This document shows, one piece after another, positions 53,143-61,822 of a stretch of 64,000 nucleotides of DNA. Positions within the stretch are counted from its first letter, which is position 1; each line of letters starts with the position of its first letter. The position numbers were made by a program, and so were the translations under genes. Under the pieces are notes generated by a model. It had not been told where the DNA came from. It searched no databases and saw only the letters and a program-made list of their open reading frames with translations. Source of the DNA: Cyanobacteriota bacterium. GTDB lineage: Bacteria > Cyanobacteriota > Cyanobacteriia > Cyanobacteriales > Nostocaceae. Where the stretch lies: positions 1 through 64,000 of the forward strand of contig JBJOKS010000019.1 of the NCBI GenBank assembly GCA_046045965.1. Reading direction: 5' to 3'.

Positions 53143-54219
53143 TTACTTAACATTCTCATGATGATAAGTGTGATAAACCTTAGCACCCTCATCTGGGACA
53201 AAACGGCAAACCTTAGCAGAATGCAATAATGCCTTCCAAATAGGAACTTCAGACTTGTAGTAATAATCGCCTAAAATTGGTTTAATTGCCTCAGTTGCTT
53301 TCAACAAATTGTAATGAGGCATATTCAAAAAGATGTGATGGGCAACATGAGTACCGATATCATGATGGATATGGTTAAAAATGCCATAATCTCTATCAAT
53401 GGTCGAAATTGCACCCTTTAAAAAAGTCCAGTTATCACCACGATACCAAGGTAATTCCTGTTCTGTGTGATGTAAATAAGTTACTAAATCCAACCAAATC
53501 ACAAACACAATGTAAGGAACAGCGTAGTATTTCAGCAACCACATCCAACCCCATTGATAAGTGAAGAAACTTAGCAAACCTACCATGCAAATCCAAAGGG
53601 TAGTGCTAGTGATAATATCCCATTTTTCTGAAGGTTTAAAAAGGGGACTTCTGGGGTCAAAATGTGAACCTTCCTTACCAGGAGAACGCTTAAACAAATA
53701 AATTGGATAAGCTAACAAGAACACATAGAAACGCCCTATTTTTTGTAATAAGGGCATTTTATTGTATTCAGATTCAGACACAGGATACCAGCTTTCATCA
53801 TTTTCCAAACTGCCAGTATTTTTGTGGTGAGTTCTGTGGCTAATTCTCCAACCGTGATAAGGAACAAGAATGAAAGTATGAGTGATATGACCAACCAAAT
53901 CATTTAGCCATTTATGCTTAGAAAAAGATTGGTGTCCGCAGTCATGACCAACCACAAACAAAGCCCAAAACATTGTTCCTTGCAATACCCAGAAAATTGG
54001 CCAGAAATACCAAGAATCTAGATAATGTGCAACTGCATATAAAGCAGCGACAATGGCAACATCACGGAAAAAGTAATAGAGTGATTTAACCACACTAGGC
54101 TGAAAACATTCAGCAGGAATAGCAGCTTTTAAATCTTGGAGAGTAAACGGAAGTTTATCTTCACCTTGAGATGATTCCAAGCTAGGACTTTGGTTGAACT
54201 GAACTGTATCTAATTGCAC
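53143..54219 (-). CDS. desB: Omega-3 (delta-15) acyl-lipid desaturase
   Basis: HDCGH, HRTHH, HVAHH His boxes; GTG start assumed. Confidence 0.95.
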   Translation of the reverse strand: MQLDTVQFNQSPSLESSQGEDKLPFTLQDLKAAIPAECFQPSVVKSLYYFFRDVAIVAALYAVAHYLDSWYFWPIFWVLQGTMFWALFVVGHDCGHQSFSKHKWLNDLVGHITHTFILVPYHGWRISHRTHHKNTGSLENDESWYPVSESEYNKMPLLQKIGRFYVFLLAYPIYLFKRSPGKEGSHFDPRSPLFKPSEKWDIITSTTLWICMVGLLSFFTYQWGWMWLLKYYAVPYIVFVIWLDLVTYLHHTEQELPWYRGDNWTFLKGAISTIDRDYGIFNHIHHDIGTHVAHHIFLNMPHYNLLKATEAIKPILGDYYYKSEVPIWKALLHSAKVCRFVPDEGAKVYHTYHHENVK

Positions 54220-54366
54220 TGGATTTGGTGATGTTAAAAAAATCAAGTTCGGGTAGACAATGTTCACTAAATATCGCAAACATTGAAATTTAGAAACTAA
54301 AATGATTTAATAAATTTTGATTAATTAAATCATTTTGTCATTGGTGGAATTATTAGCTAGAGACTT

Positions 54367-55425
54367 TTATCTCTGGGCGTAATATTCGTCAAAAGTTGTA
54401 TAACCAATGTCAGTTTTATAAAGTTGACATTCGTTAGTGATTAGTTTCATTAAATCCCAAGAGAACTTATATTCCTCATGGAGATATGGTTGCCAATTTT
54501 GTTTGATGCTGTCGTAAGCTAACCGCAAATTGTAGGAAGGAATAGCGGTAGAAATATGATGGGGAACGTGAACGTTAATATCATGACAAAGGATTTCTAC
54601 CCAACGAGGATAATCACAATGAACTGTACCGAATAACTGTGCCATAGCCTCGTTCCACTTGTCAGCAGTTTTAAAAGGAACATCTGGAAGAGTGTGGTGA
54701 ACAATAGTGAAGGTACTCATCCAGAAATGGTAAACCATCCAAGGGATAAACCAGAACTTAATAAATCCCCAAACACCAGTGGTAATAATCAACGTTGGAA
54801 AAACAATAGCTGCAAAAGCTACCACCACACCAACAGAAAGCTTAACATTAGCTCTATCTTTTGGCTGAAATTTTCGCGCATCAAAATGCACAACTGCCCA
54901 ATGTCCAATAGAACCTACCCACCACAGACGCTTCTGCATAAAAAATTGAAATGCAGACTGTCTGGTTTTATTCCAACTTTCAAAAACCTCTGGTCTGATG
55001 GGATGCCATGCGTTATCCTCATCTAATTTATTTGTATGTTTATGGTGATGATTATGTTTAATTCTCCAGCTGTGAAAAGGGTAAATTAGAAACATCATGA
55101 AAAAATGACCAACCAAATCATTTACCCAACGACGTTTAGCAAAAGAACGATGTCCGCAGTCATGTCCAATAACAAAAAATCCTGTTAAAGCAGTTCCTGT
55201 AAAAATCCATGCTATGGGTAGAAGAAACCAGGGAGAAATTGCTATAAAATAATAGCCTAATGCAGCCATAGATAGACTGAGAACTACAGTAGTCCAAGCT
55301 TTGCGGCTATTTTGTTGGAAACATTCCTTGGGCAGACTTTTGATAATATGTTTTAGTTTGATTTCGTCTTTACCAAGGCTTGTGGAGACGAAAGTTTCCT
55401 GGTTTTTGATGATTGATGTAGTCAT
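54367..55425 (-). CDS. desA: Delta-12 acyl-lipid desaturase
   Basis: HDCGH, HNHHH, HVPHH. Confidence 0.95.
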   Translation of the reverse strand: MTTSIIKNQETFVSTSLGKDEIKLKHIIKSLPKECFQQNSRKAWTTVVLSLSMAALGYYFIAISPWFLLPIAWIFTGTALTGFFVIGHDCGHRSFAKRRWVNDLVGHFFMMFLIYPFHSWRIKHNHHHKHTNKLDEDNAWHPIRPEVFESWNKTRQSAFQFFMQKRLWWVGSIGHWAVVHFDARKFQPKDRANVKLSVGVVVAFAAIVFPTLIITTGVWGFIKFWFIPWMVYHFWMSTFTIVHHTLPDVPFKTADKWNEAMAQLFGTVHCDYPRWVEILCHDINVHVPHHISTAIPSYNLRLAYDSIKQNWQPYLHEEYKFSWDLMKLITNECQLYKTDIGYTTFDEYYAQR

Positions 55426-55675
55426 GAATACCTGAAAAACAGCAAGTCCTCCTGCAAAATCACTAGAAAAATGAGCTTGCAGCAAAGTTTTGTAACATTA
55501 ATTTCTGAGATTATAGCAACCTAAGAGTAACTTAGGGTAGGTAATCAGCAATTAAAATTAAAAATTAAAAATTAAAAATTAAAAATTTTAATCGCTGTAG
55601 TTGTACGCAAAAAGTCAATAGTTTAGCGTCCAAATTTTGAACATAAAACTATTGACTTTCAAGATAAACTATGCG

Positions 55676-56494
55676 TTATGCTTTTTTCTCTGCCAGCTTG
55701 ACATTTGTCGCTAGACCTAGCAGTTGGAGTAATTGAATAGTCATCCAAGTCATATCAATTTCCCACCATTCCAAGCCATGACGGGCAGAATACTGAAAAG
55801 CATGGTGATTATTGTGCCAGCCTTCACCAAATACCAGAATCGCCACCCACCAACAATTAGTGGAATTGTCACCAGATTCTGGATATGTGCGATAGCCGAA
55901 CTTATGGGTAGCACTGTTGACCAACCAAGTACAGTGGTAAACCCAGATAATCCGCACAAAAATTCCCCAAACGACAAAAGACCAGCCGCCTAAGAAAAAG
56001 AGTAGTAGTCCCAGGGCAATTTGTAAGAAAATGAAATTTTTCTGTAAAAACTGATAAACTGGGTCATCAATAATGTCTTTTGTGAAGCGAGGAACTTGTT
56101 CGTGAGCGGGGGCAAAATGAATCATCCAGCCCATGTGACTCCACCAGAAACCTTGATTGGAATCATGGGGATCATTTTCTGTATCTGAGTGTAAATGATG
56201 GATACGGTGTGTACCTACCCACTCAATAGGTCCGCCTTCACAGGATAAAGTCCCGAAAATAACTAGGAGATACTCCAGCCATTTGGGAGTTTGAAAACTG
56301 CGGTGGGTGACAAGACGGTGATAACCAAGGGTAATCCCTAAACCACCAGTTACCCAGTAAAGAAATAAAGCCACACCGACAGCTTTCCAGCTAAAGTTAC
56401 TAGGAACTAAAGCGAACATAGCTCCAATGTGTAATGCAACGAAAAATAGGGTGTTAACCCAGTTAATTTGAGGTTTAGAAGTAGCAATTGTCAT
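55676..56494 (-). CDS. desC: Delta-9 acyl-lipid desaturase
   Basis: HRLVTH, HRIHH, GEGWHNNHH. Confidence 0.96.
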   Translation of the reverse strand: MTIATSKPQINWVNTLFFVALHIGAMFALVPSNFSWKAVGVALFLYWVTGGLGITLGYHRLVTHRSFQTPKWLEYLLVIFGTLSCEGGPIEWVGTHRIHHLHSDTENDPHDSNQGFWWSHMGWMIHFAPAHEQVPRFTKDIIDDPVYQFLQKNFIFLQIALGLLLFFLGGWSFVVWGIFVRIIWVYHCTWLVNSATHKFGYRTYPESGDNSTNCWWVAILVFGEGWHNNHHAFQYSARHGLEWWEIDMTWMTIQLLQLLGLATNVKLAEKKA

Positions 56495-56603
56495 GCAGTA
56501 TCCTGAATAGAAATTTGTTCAGCCTAATCTGCGCGATTTTTCGAGTAGCTAGGCGCTACGCGCCATAAATCCGCATATCTATATTTTTTTGAATGAGGAA
56601 ACA

Positions 56604-57833
56604 ATGAACAGCATAGAAAAGCTACGGCAAGCAGAACAGGCACTATTAGAGATTTTTTCTGGTATTGACGCTCAGGTCAAGCATAATCTGAAACGGGTAC
56701 TCGATGCTTTTCGTAATCACCGTGTAGGATCACACCATTTTGCGGGTGTAAGTGGTTATGGACACGATGATTTAGGAAGAGAAACCTTAGATAAAGTATT
56801 TGCCGAAGTGATGGGTGCCGAGGCTGCGGTGGTGCGAGTGCAGATTGTTTCGGGAACTCATGCGATCGCCTGTGCGCTGTATGGTGTGCTTCGTCCTGGG
56901 GATGAAATGTTAGCAGTAGTCGGTTCTCCCTACGATACATTGGAAGAGGTAATTGGCTTGCGAGGGCAAAACCAAGGTTCCCTTATTGAGTTTGGCATAA
57001 AATACCGCCAATTGGAACTAACCCAAGAAGGAAAAGTAGATTGGTCAGCTTTAAGCACCGCCATCACCGAAAATACCCGTTTAGTCCTCATTCAGCGTTC
57101 CTGTGGATACTCATGGCGGCCAAGCCTATCTATAGCTGAGATTGAAAAAATAGTTCACATCGTCAAACAACAAAACCCCAACACCGTTTGTTTTGTAGAC
57201 AACTGCTACGGCGAATTTATTGACACCCAAGAACCAACCCACGTAGGTGCTGACTTGATGGCCGGGTCATTGATTAAAAACCCTGGTGGTACACTTGTTA
57301 CAGCCGGTGGTTACATAGCCGGAAAAGCTGACCTAGTAGAAGCAGCAGCTTGTAGACTTACCGCCCCGGGTATTGGTAGTGCGGGAGGTGCAACCTTTGA
57401 TCAAAACCGCTTATTATTCCAAGGGTTATTTTTAGCACCCCAGATAGTCGGGGAAGCTATGAAAGGAACATACCTCACAGGTTACGTATTTGATAAACTC
57501 GGATATCCCGTTAACCCCGCACCTTTAGCACCACGGGGGGACGTTATCCAAGCCATCAAACTCGGTTCAGCCAAAAAGCTAATCGCCTTCTGTAAAGCCA
57601 TCCAACAGTATTCACCCATAGGATCTTATCTCGACCCCGTTCCCGATGATATGCCAGGGTACGAAAGCCAAGTAGTCATGGCTGGGGGGACATTTATTGA
57701 AGGTAGCACCTTGGAATTATCAGCCGATGGACCATTACGTGAGCCTTATGTTGTGTATTGTCAGGGCGGGACACATTGGACTCATGTATCTTTGGCGTTA
57801 CAGGCAGCTATTGAGGCTGTAGGAGAAGTATAA
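56604..57833 (+). CDS. PLP-dependent methionine gamma-lyase-like / aluminium-resistance family protein
   Basis: GYGHDD.GR, SGTHA, VDNCYGEF, GSLIKNPGG, LSADGP. Confidence 0.9.
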   Translation: MNSIEKLRQAEQALLEIFSGIDAQVKHNLKRVLDAFRNHRVGSHHFAGVSGYGHDDLGRETLDKVFAEVMGAEAAVVRVQIVSGTHAIACALYGVLRPGDEMLAVVGSPYDTLEEVIGLRGQNQGSLIEFGIKYRQLELTQEGKVDWSALSTAITENTRLVLIQRSCGYSWRPSLSIAEIEKIVHIVKQQNPNTVCFVDNCYGEFIDTQEPTHVGADLMAGSLIKNPGGTLVTAGGYIAGKADLVEAAACRLTAPGIGSAGGATFDQNRLLFQGLFLAPQIVGEAMKGTYLTGYVFDKLGYPVNPAPLAPRGDVIQAIKLGSAKKLIAFCKAIQQYSPIGSYLDPVPDDMPGYESQVVMAGGTFIEGSTLELSADGPLREPYVVYCQGGTHWTHVSLALQAAIEAVGEV

Positions 57834-57838
57834 GAAGA

Positions 57839-58345
57839 GTTTCGCGCAAAGACGCTAAGGAGCAAAGGCGCGAAGGAAGAGAAGGAAGAGAAGGAGGAGT
57901 TTAAAGTTTGTTAGCTATGCGTTTGATACCGTCTTTGATGAGGACTTCACCAAAGTTGATGAGTAGGCCAAGGCGTTTATTGGCAAGGGTGAGATAGGTA
58001 ATGAGTTGTTTTTTGTGGACGGGGTGTAGGGTGTCTAAGGATTTAATTTCAATGATGACTTTGTTTTCAACTATGATGTCTGCCCTAAAACCTTCCTGTA
58101 AATGAACACTCTCATAAACTACAGGTATTGGTTGTTGCCTTGCTACCTGTAAACCTCTACTCTCCAACTCCTAGGCCAAAATAGTCTCATACACAGATTC
58201 AAACAACCCAGGTCCTCACCTAGTATGAATCTTGTACGCAGCATCAACAATCTGAGTTGCTATTTCATTCTCCGTCATCTTCATATCCTTCTTCTTACTT
58301 TGTATCTTCTTCTTACCTTTGCTCCTCTGCGCCTTTGCGCGAAAC
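57839..58345. mobile_element. Inverted-repeat-bounded GxxExxY cassette (507 bp)
   Basis: 30-bp IRs at 57839-57868 and 58316-58345 (27/30 match) enclosing only the GxxExxY gene. Confidence 0.6.
57901..58278 (-). pseudogene. GxxExxY family PD-(D/E)XK protein with two in-frame stops
   Basis: MTENEIATQIVDAAYKIHTR*GPGLFESVYETILA*ELESRG..RADIIVENKVIIEIKS..Q..TYL..GLLINFG; stops at 58216-58218 and 58171-58173. Confidence 0.9.
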
Positions 58346-58346
58346 C

Positions 58347-59546
58347 TTATTCCGGTAATTTATACTGCGCTACGATCCGCTTGGCAAATTCTGGTACATG
58401 ATCTGCCAATTTCTCTGGATGATTCCGTTTAACATATAAGTAATTTCTTGTAAAGTGGGAATCCATCGAAAATTTCCCATATTCCAGTCCTTGTGGTCCG
58501 ATTTTATCTATGACGACTCCCATTAATTTTGCTACCCACATGGGTAAGGTGACGGCTTTATCGTAGGCTTCTATTCCTTGTTGTACGGCGGCTTTTCTGT
58601 CTCCTTTGGACATCACTGGTTGGGTGTGGAGTTGGTCTTTTACCAGTTCGAGCATTTCTTTCCCGGTATCATTTCTCACTACTATCCATTGCCAGTTGAA
58701 AGGTGCGCCCATGTATCCTACTACTATGTCTGCTAGGGAGTTGACGTAATCAAAGCAACTCATACATGATGGGGCGAAGATGTCTTTTAGTACGTTGGTT
58801 TTTAAGCCAAAGAAGGGTACTTTTTCTTCTGATCCATCTTCATGTTTAAAATGTACCCGGAAGTCTTGCATAAATTCGTAACTAACTACGGTTTCGGGGG
58901 ATCTGCTGGTGGTTTCTAGGAATTTTTGCAGTCCGGCGCGGGTAACGTTATCTACGCATGGTGTACCCAGGACATAGAGTTTTTCTAGTCCGAGTTTTTT
59001 CTCAACAGCGCGTAATGCTTGGATTTGACACCCTACTCCGATGACTAATAACCGCTTCATTCCCGATTTTTCGATTTCTTCTAATACGGAAAGGTTGGGG
59101 GATAGGGTAGGTTTGTTTACTTTGGCAGCTAGTATTTCTTCGGGGGTGCGGGCGATGATGGGCATGGGTTGAAAGCGGTCTTCTTTGGTGTTTTGGACAC
59201 AGACTACGCCTTCGACTAAGCCCCGGTTGAGCATTTCTATGGCGATGGTGCTGACTATTCCTGTCCATTGTGCGCCTTCTATGGGTTGTTGTTTTCTGGC
59301 GGCTATCATTTCTTGATGTACGCCAAAATAAAGTTCGTTGTCGTCTTCTAGGTTGCGGGGGCGGTTATGGGTGGTGGTTTCTAGTTCGTCTATTCTTTGG
59401 GTGATGAAGGCGCACGCTTCTTTGACGTAGTGGATATAGTAGGTGTCGCATAGTCCGCATTCGCTACAAAGTTCTTTGGCGGGGCGCACGCTTCCGGGTT
59501 TGAGGGCTTTGGCTTTTTTGTGTTTGCTAGAATCTATGGTAGTCAT
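58347..59546 (-). CDS. bciB: Ferredoxin-dependent 8-vinyl (divinyl chlorophyllide) reductase, FrhB-like
   Basis: CSECGLC, GAQWTG, GVGCQ, GTPCVDN, SCMSCFDY. Confidence 0.85.
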   Translation of the reverse strand: MTTIDSSKHKKAKALKPGSVRPAKELCSECGLCDTYYIHYVKEACAFITQRIDELETTTHNRPRNLEDDNELYFGVHQEMIAARKQQPIEGAQWTGIVSTIAIEMLNRGLVEGVVCVQNTKEDRFQPMPIIARTPEEILAAKVNKPTLSPNLSVLEEIEKSGMKRLLVIGVGCQIQALRAVEKKLGLEKLYVLGTPCVDNVTRAGLQKFLETTSRSPETVVSYEFMQDFRVHFKHEDGSEEKVPFFGLKTNVLKDIFAPSCMSCFDYVNSLADIVVGYMGAPFNWQWIVVRNDTGKEMLELVKDQLHTQPVMSKGDRKAAVQQGIEAYDKAVTLPMWVAKLMGVVIDKIGPQGLEYGKFSMDSHFTRNYLYVKRNHPEKLADHVPEFAKRIVAQYKLPE

Positions 59547-59600
59547 ATATTTTGTTTGTTTTACTCAAATATTGCTTTTATTACCTTACCGTTACAAGCT

Positions 59601-59807
59601 ATGAACTTGAAGATTGAGATTGAACAAGAGGAAGACGGGCGTTTTATTGCTGAGGTGATTGATATTCCCGGTGTTTTGGCCTATGGAAATACAAGACAGG
59701 AAGCAGTAGCCAAGGTTCAGGCTTTGGCTTTGCGAGTATTAGCGGATAAATTGGAACATGGTGAAGTACACTCAGATTTATTTAGTGTTTCTTTTGCAGC
59801 AGCATGA
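59601..59807 (+). CDS. HicB-like antitoxin (short)
   Basis: EQEEDGRFIAEV.DIPGV.AYG.T..EA. Confidence 0.85.
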   Translation: MNLKIEIEQEEDGRFIAEVIDIPGVLAYGNTRQEAVAKVQALALRVLADKLEHGEVHSDLFSVSFAAA

Positions 59808-60016
59808 GTCAATGGTCTAGTCAAAAAGCAAAGCGTGTTTTAGCCGCCTTGTTGCGTATTGGATGGGAAATCAAACGTCAATCAGGTTCACACAAAATTC
59901 TGTCACGTCCTGATTGGGATGATTTCATTTTTGCATTTCATGATAATGAAGAGATAGGTCCGAGAATGTTAGCAAGAATCAGTAAACTTACTGGTTTAAC
60001 TCCTGATGATTTGTGA
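59804..60016 (+). CDS. HicA-like mRNA interferase toxin
   Basis: L...GW...RQSGSH; 4-nt overlap with the antitoxin. Confidence 0.88.
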   Translation: MSQWSSQKAKRVLAALLRIGWEIKRQSGSHKILSRPDWDDFIFAFHDNEEIGPRMLARISKLTGLTPDDL

Positions 60017-60126
60017 TGTGGATTCCTTTATAATTTTCTGTATTTTATAGTTTATTGATAAAGGAATTGACATTTTCAAGCCTTTTAACTTAGAATTTAG
60101 CTTGTTATTTTATTAACCTCTTACAC

Positions 60127-60393
60127 ATGAAAGATAACATTTTTGACTTTCTGAAGAGATACAGTGCAGAAGATATTAGTGAAACCATTTCCATGTACAA
60201 GTTATTTGGCGGATTTTTGTTTGTATTTGCACTTTATTCTGCGGCATTTTGGTTAGTTCCTCAGTCAGAAATACTAAATGAACTTGTTTTTGGGATAAAG
60301 GTCACTAATGCATTAGGTACTTTTATTCTATCAACTATAACTTTTCTTTTCATAATTCTATTTGTCGGTAAGAAGAACCCGTCTAATCTGTAA
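60127..60393 (+). CDS. Small two-TM hypothetical protein
   Basis: 88 aa, two hydrophobic helices, followed by a terminator. Confidence 0.6.
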   Translation: MKDNIFDFLKRYSAEDISETISMYKLFGGFLFVFALYSAAFWLVPQSEILNELVFGIKVTNALGTFILSTITFLFIILFVGKKNPSNL

Positions 60394-60424
60394 AATTTAT
60401 CCACTTATGAATTTTTGCTTAATC

Positions 60425-60456
60425 AACCCTTCGATTAATTTATCGAGGGTTTTTTG
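60425..60456 (+). terminator. Intrinsic terminator
   Basis: AACCCTTCGAT-TAATTT-ATCGAGGGTT hairpin plus T-run. Confidence 0.7.
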
Positions 60457-60571
60457 CTGTTAAAATACATCTTTCATTATCCCACAAAACCGCCTGATAA
60501 TTAATTCTCATAATGATCGCTGTTTCAAAAAATATGCTATATTTAGCATAATCAGGATATAAGTCAGACAA

Positions 60572-60937
60572 TTGCAAACAGAACCTATAAAACCACTGCA
60601 ATGGGTAGGAAGTTCTCTAGAAGACCTCAAAAAATTTCCTGAAGAGGTACAAGGAGAAATAGGATATGCGTTATATTTAGCCCAAATGGGTGAAAAACAT
60701 CCTCATACTAAACCCTTAAAAGGATTTAAAGGAGCAAGTGTATTAGAAGTTGTAGAAGATTTTGATGGAGATACCTATAGAGCTATTTATACTGTGAAAT
60801 TAGCAAAAGCAGTTTATGTTCTTCATGTTTTTCAGAAAAAATCAAAACATGGTATTGCTACACCAAAACAAGATATTGATTTGATTGAAGCAAGACTGAA
60901 AAAAGCTAAAGAACATCATGATCAAATAAATCAATAA
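60572..60937 (+). CDS. RelE/HigB-family toxin (Gp49-like)
   Basis: W.GSSLEDL..FP, TYRAIY, VLHVFQKKS. Confidence 0.88.
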   Translation: MQTEPIKPLQWVGSSLEDLKKFPEEVQGEIGYALYLAQMGEKHPHTKPLKGFKGASVLEVVEDFDGDTYRAIYTVKLAKAVYVLHVFQKKSKHGIATPKQDIDLIEARLKKAKEHHDQINQ

Positions 60938-60951
60938 AACCCAGGAGAATT

Positions 60952-61269
60952 ATGTCAGAAAATATCGAAATTAAACCCAGTAGTGGTAATGTATTTGCTG
61001 ATTTAGGATTACCAAATGCTGATGAAATGTTAGTAAAAGCAGAACTAGCTCGGAAAATTAGTCAAGCTATTACCGCACGGGGATTAACTCAAGTTGAAGC
61101 TGCGGAATTATTAGGAATTGATCAACCAAAAGTTTCTGCTTTAATCAGAGGAAGATTAACAGGTTTTTCTTTAGAAAGAATGTTTAAATTTCTCAATGCT
61201 TTTGATAGTGATATAGAAATTATAGTAAAACCTAAATCTAGTCATAATGCACGGATTATTGTTAAGTAA
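60952..61269 (+). CDS. XRE-HTH antitoxin (HigA-like)
   Basis: SSGNVFADLG, LTQVEAAELLGIDQPKVS. Confidence 0.88.
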   Translation: MSENIEIKPSSGNVFADLGLPNADEMLVKAELARKISQAITARGLTQVEAAELLGIDQPKVSALIRGRLTGFSLERMFKFLNAFDSDIEIIVKPKSSHNARIIVK

Positions 61270-61349
61270 TTTTAGGAAGGAAATCTTTATTGAAATTTGT
61301 GATAAAATTAATCTAATTGAATGTTTATTGATATCAACAATACAAACCA

Positions 61350-61553
61350 ATGCAAGCTGATAAATATCCATTTGCTGAAGAATTAATTACTGATATTGAA
61401 GGTAATATCAGAAAAGTAGTCATGGATTTTCAAGAATACTTACGGTTGCTAGAAGCACTAGAAGATGAAGGACTTATTTTAGCAATGAAAGAAGTAGAAA
61501 ATGAAACTCCTTTAAATTTTGATGAAGCATTAGCAGAATTAGAAAAAGAGTGA
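61350..61553 (+). CDS. Putative antitoxin
   Basis: Acidic 67-aa ORF overlapping the RelE start by 4 nt. Confidence 0.75.
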   Translation: MQADKYPFAEELITDIEGNIRKVVMDFQEYLRLLEALEDEGLILAMKEVENETPLNFDEALAELEKE

Positions 61554-61822
61554 ATACCCAGTATCTACCTAGTTTTATTAAAGACCTAAAAGCACTCAAA
61601 AGTACACCTTACTATGAGTCTATTAAAAAGTTTGCTTTTGAAGAAATAATTGAAATATCAAGTTTTGCAGAAATCACCAATATCAAAAAGCTGCAAGGAT
61701 ATGATAATGCTTATCGTGTTCGTATAGGTGATTATCGTATTGGTGTTATTTTTGATGGTGAGACATTAATTTTTGAAAGAGTTTTACACCGTAAAGAAAT
61801 CTATCGTTATTTTCCCAAATAG
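61550..61822 (+). CDS. RelE/ParE-family toxin
   Basis: IKKLQG, YRVRIGDYRI, VLHRKEIY. Confidence 0.9.
   Translation: MNTQYLPSFIKDLKALKSTPYYESIKKFAFEEIIEISSFAEITNIKKLQGYDNAYRVRIGDYRIGVIFDGETLIFERVLHRKEIYRYFPK

Follow-up and report, generated by a model that had tools for sequence, protein, structure and literature searches.

A decayed GxxExxY nuclease gene and its inverted arms form a cassette of a kind exchanged as one unit at a fixed position among related cyanobacteria

An element of approximately 0.5 kb, consisting of one GxxExxY gene with an array of a 9-nt unit on each side, the two arrays being inverted relative to each other, was analyzed in a window of 64,000 nucleotides (the whole stretch of DNA examined) from a cyanobacterium of the family Nostocaceae. 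The element is a dead copy of a kind of cassette in which a nuclease gene is accompanied by its own repeats. In related genomes the same site was found to hold any of three versions of gene plus arms, bare arms or nothing, indicating that the cassette is likely to be selfish; it is likely that it spreads by replacing its rivals. We give about even weight to the specific reading that this is a recently inactivated homing-like cassette, whose gene and arms are swapped together at a fixed site and whose nuclease probably cuts its own arms.

The cassette is located between two convergent host genes. The left flank is a PF06838 gene (Met_gamma_lyase / YnbB-type PLP enzyme; 56589 to 57833, plus strand; E 2.8e-204), which is syntenic in relatives and is the left homology arm of the slot. 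The right flank is a gene with FrhB_FdhB_N/C domains (58347 to 59546, minus strand), which we take to be HCAR-like. The left arm (57839 to 57875, plus strand) lies 3′ of the nuclease gene and contains about four 9-nt units of type C with the outer end TTTCGCGC; the right arm (58309 to 58345, minus strand) lies 5′ of the gene and is an inverted copy of the left. The initial annotation had reported inverted copies at 57839 to 57868 and 58316 to 58345, with gaps of 5 nt and 1 nt to the adjacent stop codons of the convergent genes; both distances and the match of 27/30 were confirmed, and the match was found to reach 37 nt at 84%. Mirrored purine tracts had also been proposed. A purine-rich tract is indeed present inside each arm, namely, a GAAG tract at 57876 to 57900 (plus strand), recognized from its sequence and from pairing in the fold, and a tract between the start codon and the right arm at 58279 to 58308 (minus strand) that may include a ribosome-binding site, but the pairing of the two is loose (75%). 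A scan of the cassette for promoters and terminators detected nothing above chance.

The gene between the arms (57901 to 58278, minus strand) had been described as having 126 codons. The frame is a real GxxExxY frame (TIGR04256 / PF13366) of 125 codons and a stop, but it is interrupted by two in-frame stops, a TGA at codon 21 (58216 to 58218, minus strand) and a TAG at codon 36 (58171 to 58173, minus strand), as read in frame. Contigs from three additional runs (X2, X3 and X5), each belonging to a different study, carried the same two stops, indicating that this PD-(D/E)XK nuclease gene is a pseudogene; assembly error and stop read-through were ruled out, as the two stops differ from each other and were identical in all three runs. 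Comparison with the intact copy of genome G229 revealed identity at 119 of 126 positions, with two of the seven differences being the stops, and values of 0.018 for dN and 0.27 for dS. These few differences indicated that inactivation of the present copy was recent. No excised, skipped or inverted joint of the cassette was detected in the contigs of four runs, contigs being a form of data that drops rare forms.

The stop-free part of 89 amino acids matched TIGR04256 (E 4.6e-29; 101 bits against a cut-off of 35) and PF13366 (E 4.4e-28; 98 bits against a cut-off of 22), so that the frame, although not intact, scores above the curated cut-offs for GxxExxY / PDDEXK_3. Residues G24, E27, Y30, E37, D67, E77 and K79 were invariant in 50 homologues, and a QxxxY motif, presumably RecB/Cas4-like, was nearly invariant. 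An intact homologue was modelled with a pLDDT of 95. The best PD-(D/E)XK matches of the model were 3ijm (Z 8.4, a middling value by itself), BpuSI (Z 8.2) and Cas4 SSO0001 (Z 8.0), with tRNA-splicing endonucleases among the weak fold matches (Z 5.2 to 5.6). A sequence search yielded no solved relative (one match, E 0.16), and a Foldseek search yielded no match at E ≤ 0.001. The PD-(D/E)XK fold previously suggested for these proteins was borne out by the model and by the invariant E37, D67, E77 and K79; the modelled homologue has this fold with a conserved E...D...ExK, and GxxExxY proteins are predicted nucleases. Ratios of dN/dS were between 0.06 and 0.20 in all of 13 close pairs, indicating purifying selection on the protein. 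The family is chromosomal: it was detected on 8 of 72,556 plasmids, in none of 50,697 phages and on 3 viral contigs, and each genome contained one to five matches, all clades included, with no multi-copy expansion. In the available part of PMC3424549, PF13366 is listed as being of unknown function, with multiple transfers and mixed clades.

Enrichment of flanking inverted repeats around GxxExxY genes had been set beforehand as a test and was evident in two surveys. An inverted arm match with a score of at least 30 was detected at 63 of 76 distinct cyanobacterial GxxExxY genes (from 81 matches, five being dropped as duplicates or, for the present window, as too short), and at several of the misses the arm had been read into the start of the ORF. 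In a broad survey of many phyla, comprising 78 genome records and 3 viral contigs after 2 of 83 were dropped at contig edges, 61 of 81 loci passed as compared to 2 of 147 shifted windows. Control genes from the same family of genomes were flanked by arms at 2 of 11 Mrr loci (one of 12 having no ORF) and 1 of 30 DUF29 loci, kin being non-independent in all of these counts. At least six arm families were distinguished by eye, each with its own protein clade, and several of these clades recurred at fixed sites of their own. Among 4,218 pairings of a cyanobacterium with a member of another phylum, sharing of arm 7-mers rose from 0.019 at <40% protein identity to 0.197 at >70% (rho of 0.30 versus a maximum of 0.15 in 999 permutations, with pairs not being independent). 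Four-fold sites between cross-phylum homologues were saturated (27/41 to 35/43 differ), and the tracking of protein by arm 7-mers despite this saturation suggests that the arm sequence is held by something tied to the protein. Promoterless read-through from an upstream gene was also considered: among loci for which a neighbour was called, the upstream gene was co-directional at only 47 of 73 in cyanobacteria and 55 of 69 elsewhere, as judged from crude ORF calls. The present genome (G000) contains two more GxxExxY loci, one intact at C81:6653-7000 (L350) and one split over the end of C64 and the start of C69 (L351/L352); their arms belong to inverted families of their own, CACGAAG-type and ATCCTG-type, unlike those of the present cassette.

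The stretch past the stop of the frhB-like gene was then surveyed in 130 genomes (128 of the family and 2 of another family in the order). A GxxExxY gene was present in 43 of these, 35 in one orientation and 8 in the other; five copies were clearly broken (G000, G021, G209, G276 and G186) and three were not fully readable, these assignments having been corrected manually as automatic classification mis-scored several full-length genes. Orthologous sites were also to be checked for empty alleles between the convergent genes, and these were found: seven genomes were empty (≤20 nt) and 12 had gene-less remnants, consisting of arms or hairpins, the shortest being a 14-nt palindrome (G264 and G224) that resembles type C outer ends fused at a shared GCGC. 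The remainder comprised eight genomes with other short sequence, eight with long inserts, one with a distant fragment and 51 in which the partner gene lay beyond the stretch examined. Members of another family had, at the same site, either the gene flanked on each side by a complete hairpin or a single hairpin without the gene (L071/G131 and L047/G048), and many type B and C copies retained a degenerate inner arm after the stop; inner arms and complete hairpins at this site suggest that the basic unit may be a hairpin. Other small palindromic elements were observed to have hit arms and gene in G021 (L042/L145), G007 (L045), L219, L221 and L228, and in G021 these were also hit by an end fragment of another element, presumably IS200/IS605-like.

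Three arm types were distinguished at the site: type A with GCAGAG units, type B with GCAAAG units and a TCACGC end, and type C, to which the present cassette belongs, with GCAAAG units and the TTTCGCGC end. Gene and flank trees were compared for 31 of the 43 loci (three disrupted or unreadable loci, six missed by the pattern and three without a left flank being omitted). On the gene tree the arm unit changed once, the outer end once and the orientation five times; on the flank tree the corresponding numbers of changes were 12, six and seven. An AU test on the flank data rejected type A as a clade (p-AU 6.5e-8). Types were mixed within each of three genera (C in G000, B in G001 and A in G002; A in G257 and B in G148; C in G229 and A in G025). 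Cassette genes of different types were 65 to 73% identical within a genus (three pairs measured), while those of the same type were 90 to 93% identical across genera. Synonymous differences in five same-genus pairs of different type were 0.58 to 0.78 for the cassette versus 0.10 to 0.39 for the des/mgl genes; in six of seven cross-genus pairs of the same type these values were 0.20 to 0.36 versus 0.30 to 0.60, the exception being G001-G254 (both type B), in which the cassette was no more alike than the housekeeping genes. The housekeeping controls included a stretch of three tandem desaturase genes (window positions 53143 to 56494), which we assume to encode fatty-acid desaturases. Arm comparisons gave a score of 40.5 for the left and right arms of one locus, 39.4 for arms of the same type elsewhere and 28.1 for arms of other types. 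The trees, identities and synonymous differences indicated that gene and arms had been exchanged together at one site. The suggestion that gene and arms form a mobile unit thus held insofar as they travel as one, but not in the sense of transposon-like jumping to many sites: the clade of this cassette occupied one site across the family and was swapped there.

The flanking genes bore further signs of exchange. In the last 400 bp or so of the frhB-like gene (about 58347 to 58745), 0.52 to 0.56 of synonymous sites differed from same-genus G001 and G002, as compared to 0.10 to 0.29 elsewhere. This tract resembled G257 and G148, which belong to another genus and carry types A and B, and not the type C carriers G229 and G190; genomes without a gene at the site exhibited a similar 3′ rise in divergence (G018-G212 and a pooled set). 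These two observations indicated that co-conversion of the flank is not tied to cassette type. The possibility that the divergence gradient is peculiar to cassette-bearing alleles was unsupported, as gene-less genomes rise likewise. Read from sequence comparison, the mosaic is a sign of recombination beside the cassette, and hence of a busy site, rather than proof of co-conversion. In four genomes (G236, G033, G281 and G194; L146, L048, L187 and L206), the stop of the left flanking gene was followed, ahead of the arm, by a remnant of a former 3′ end of this gene, which is what repeated short-patch replacement at the border would leave behind. A cluster of small genes of toxin-antitoxin type lies immediately upstream of the frhB-like gene, at 59520 to 61822 of the window, with a Gp49/DUF891 and HTH_37 pair, a ParE gene and a HicB-like ORF without a Pfam match.

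Arm sequences were also dispersed through the genome. In the 5.3-Mb assembly, 70 copies matching a degenerate 28-nt arm pattern were counted, as compared to zero in two shuffled versions, and a strict pattern had 29 copies versus none for a reversed control. Orphan copies, whose genome-wide number had been raised by the initial annotation, accounted for 64 of the 70 at a score of 30; the other six formed three inverted pairs within 1.5 kb, enclosing the present cassette, an Mrr restriction gene and a set of further small hairpins (C17). Solo copies of this arm variant were present in the type C carriers (29 in G000, 16 in G229 and 11 in G190) and also in G273 (25), G148 (13) and G001 (12), whose site holds other versions. 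Other periodic repeats in G000 included ATCCTG-type (227 matches), GCAGGGG-type (143), CGCAGAG-type (100) and CGCAGATG-type (73) families, several of which are the arms of GxxExxY clades in other genomes. The assembly contained 2,712 HIP1 sites, and the closest named matches were Nodularia and Nostoc, both in keeping with a cyanobacterial host. Small dispersed repeats of cyanobacteria were reportedly described by Elhai et al. in 2008, and solo arms may already be catalogued among them.

Six other arm sites of G000 were compared with five relatives, and several proved to be variable slots between conserved genes, which in relatives were occupied by Mrr, by a methylase and the gene next to it, by DUF29, by Uma2 or by a different PD-(D/E)XK gene. 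Arms were present at some, and not all, borders of such slots. The arms punctuate variable slots, and the GxxExxY gene is the only one regularly enclosed by them. One slot of G000 has an intact Mrr type IV restriction gene between inverted type A arms (C6:34034-35073; L334:536-1573), with neighbours that are presumably aspS-like and aroA-like; in relatives the contents of this slot were Mrr accompanied by a methylase and one additional gene, Mrr in truncated form, DUF29, or a different PD-(D/E)XK gene.

If the cassette is homing-like, the nuclease would recognize and cut its own arms, perhaps as single-stranded DNA or in hairpin form by analogy with SsnA, and cutting at the arms would lead to recombination by which one version of the cassette replaces another or an empty allele. 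Spread would occur through DNA uptake and RecA-type recombination in the two conserved flanking genes, a route suggested by the near absence of the family from phages and plasmids; cyanobacteria are known for competence and polyploidy. Inversion and gene loss may arise by recombination or slippage between the arms, and solo arms elsewhere, left as relics or produced as by-products, may mark other variable slots. The low dN/dS ratios (0.06 to 0.20) together with repeated decay fit the cycle of invasion, decay and reinvasion, which is that of homing endonuclease theory. Several observations count against this reading. Homing nucleases of the classical kind cleave a target in the empty allele that is absent from their own, but in this cassette the gene is itself flanked by the probable recognition sites. 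The flank mosaic does not follow cassette type, the G001-G254 pair is no more alike in the cassette than in its housekeeping genes, solo copies of this arm variant are abundant also in genomes with other versions at the site, and the arms are not exclusive to GxxExxY, as they also bracket Mrr and mark DUF29, Uma2 and other slots. More tentatively, GxxExxY cassettes may constitute an undescribed chromosomal class of selfish element in which an arm-reading nuclease of 125 residues drives its allele over empty or rival-arm alleles at a fixed intergenic site, arm codes compete across genera and stray arms seed variable gene slots. In that case, a protein together with its arms would amount to a very small nuclease with its own sequence specificity.

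A lesser but real possibility is that the cassette encodes a nuclease useful to the host, in restriction of incoming DNA or against phages, as has been proposed for SsnA, that resides in a variable slot between core genes with the arms as binding or regulatory sites, its types being swapped by ordinary homologous recombination under balancing selection and without drive. Purifying selection on the protein is in keeping with this, as are the other arm-marked slots, which hold Mrr, a methylase-nuclease pair, Uma2 and DUF29, and the finding that the flank mosaic is not type-specific; according to the accessible part of PMC11893778, transformation with DNA that carries the repeats is reduced by SsnA, whose gene is arranged in the same way. 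However, frequent decay and loss, presence in both orientations and strict co-variation of gene and arms are more simply explained by selfishness, and PADLOC detected no defence model beyond a weak Cas4 similarity (E 1e-3).

That the cassette is a true insertion sequence, with GxxExxY as the transposase, the arms as terminal inverted repeats, the hairpins as MITEs and the G264/G224 palindrome as the empty target (with GCGC duplication), is improbable. The layout of a gene between inverted repeats, the gene-less versions, the presence of other clades at other sites and of other cargo between arms, and the near identity of this palindrome to fused type C outer ends would all be accommodated. The clade, however, has one copy per genome and one site across the family, without multi-copy expansion; 64 of 70 arms are unpaired, the proposed target palindromes have no copy elsewhere in this genome and no target duplication is present outside the arms at the site. 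The palindrome is equally explained by deletion across the base of a hairpin.

The initial annotation had also offered an RNA-level hairpin cassette with flanks that pair around the gene. In such a cassette, transcripts running through from the flanking genes would form a stem between the arms, and RNase III or the cassette's own protein would process it, as in an rRNA intervening sequence. The region has a stable predicted RNA fold (z -5.3) with no promoter-like site above chance, tRNA-splicing endonucleases occur among the weak fold matches and the whole cassette is covered by one contig from a run labelled as RNA, DNA carry-over being possible. Arm mismatches, however, had no strand bias toward G-U pairs (118 versus 105 and 64 versus 73), Rfam gave no match and the contigs of two RNA runs contained no skipped-cassette joint. 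Many arms are solo, and an RNA reading leaves the replacement of types unexplained; we consider it very doubtful. Chance bracketing of a fixed gene by two independent insertions of a common repeat, of which this genome has 70 copies, is extremely improbable and is refuted by family-wide enrichment, clade-specific arms and empty alleles.

A search of the literature found no published account of a GxxExxY-plus-arms cassette, subscription papers being thinly covered and supplements being able to bear on novelty; the accessible part of the PMC3424549 entry for GxxExxY / PDDEXK_3 mentions neither flanking repeats nor cassettes. Among published systems, one of the closest is Ssn/NTS as described in the available part of PMC11893778: a small single-domain nuclease gene has its own repeats on both sides and many orphan copies, and repeat variants co-vary with the protein. 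The authors of that work likened Ssn/NTS to IS and to REP/RAYT. SsnA, however, is a GIY-YIG (cd10448) single-stranded DNA endonuclease, whereas the present protein has a modelled PD-(D/E)XK fold and is a predicted nuclease; replacement among types at the same site was observed here and is not reported in that part of the source. Unlike the repeats of Ssn/NTS, each arm here is a tandem array of a 9- to 10-nt unit and not a hairpin by itself.

As in the REPtrons and TIRtrons of PMC3733652, in the portion available, where HUH Y1 genes (RAYT or TIRYT) have REPs or TIRs on their flanks, one nuclease gene of low copy number lies between inverted repeats, and gene-less repeat families are dispersed intergenically; REPINs (PMC3116915) are grouped with these systems. 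Unlike RAYT and TIRYT in the same source portion, the cassette has no HUH/Y1 protein, and its arms are periodic and without GTAG/CGTC tags; most orphan arms are unpaired, unlike those of REP/TIR systems. The REP/RAYT analogy drawn initially thus extends to the layout and to gene-less derivatives (the 12 remnants and the C17 pair) but not to the HUH Y1 transposase. As the enzyme is neither GIY-YIG nor HUH, the cassette belongs to neither Ssn/NTS nor REPtrons/TIRtrons. An rRNA intervening sequence differs in that the present cassette lies between protein genes, with no Rfam match and no excision in contigs.

Free-standing homing endonuclease genes resemble the cassette in occupying a fixed site, in being patchily present and horizontally exchanged, and in evolving under purifying selection with repeated decay and loss, but differ in that the cassette occurs in both orientations and that no uninterrupted target was identified in an empty allele. 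We know of no homing element that lies between inverted arrays of its own with which it co-evolves. A natural experiment is provided by the occurrence of three protein and arm types, as well as alleles that are empty or dead, at a single site among relatives, and a very widespread family of unknown function gains a testable role and a candidate substrate in its own arms. The cassette would also explain abundant 9-mer intergenic repeats in cyanobacteria and other phyla. If arm-specific, GxxExxY enzymes would join Ssn as a second family of very small nucleases that are specific for repeats.
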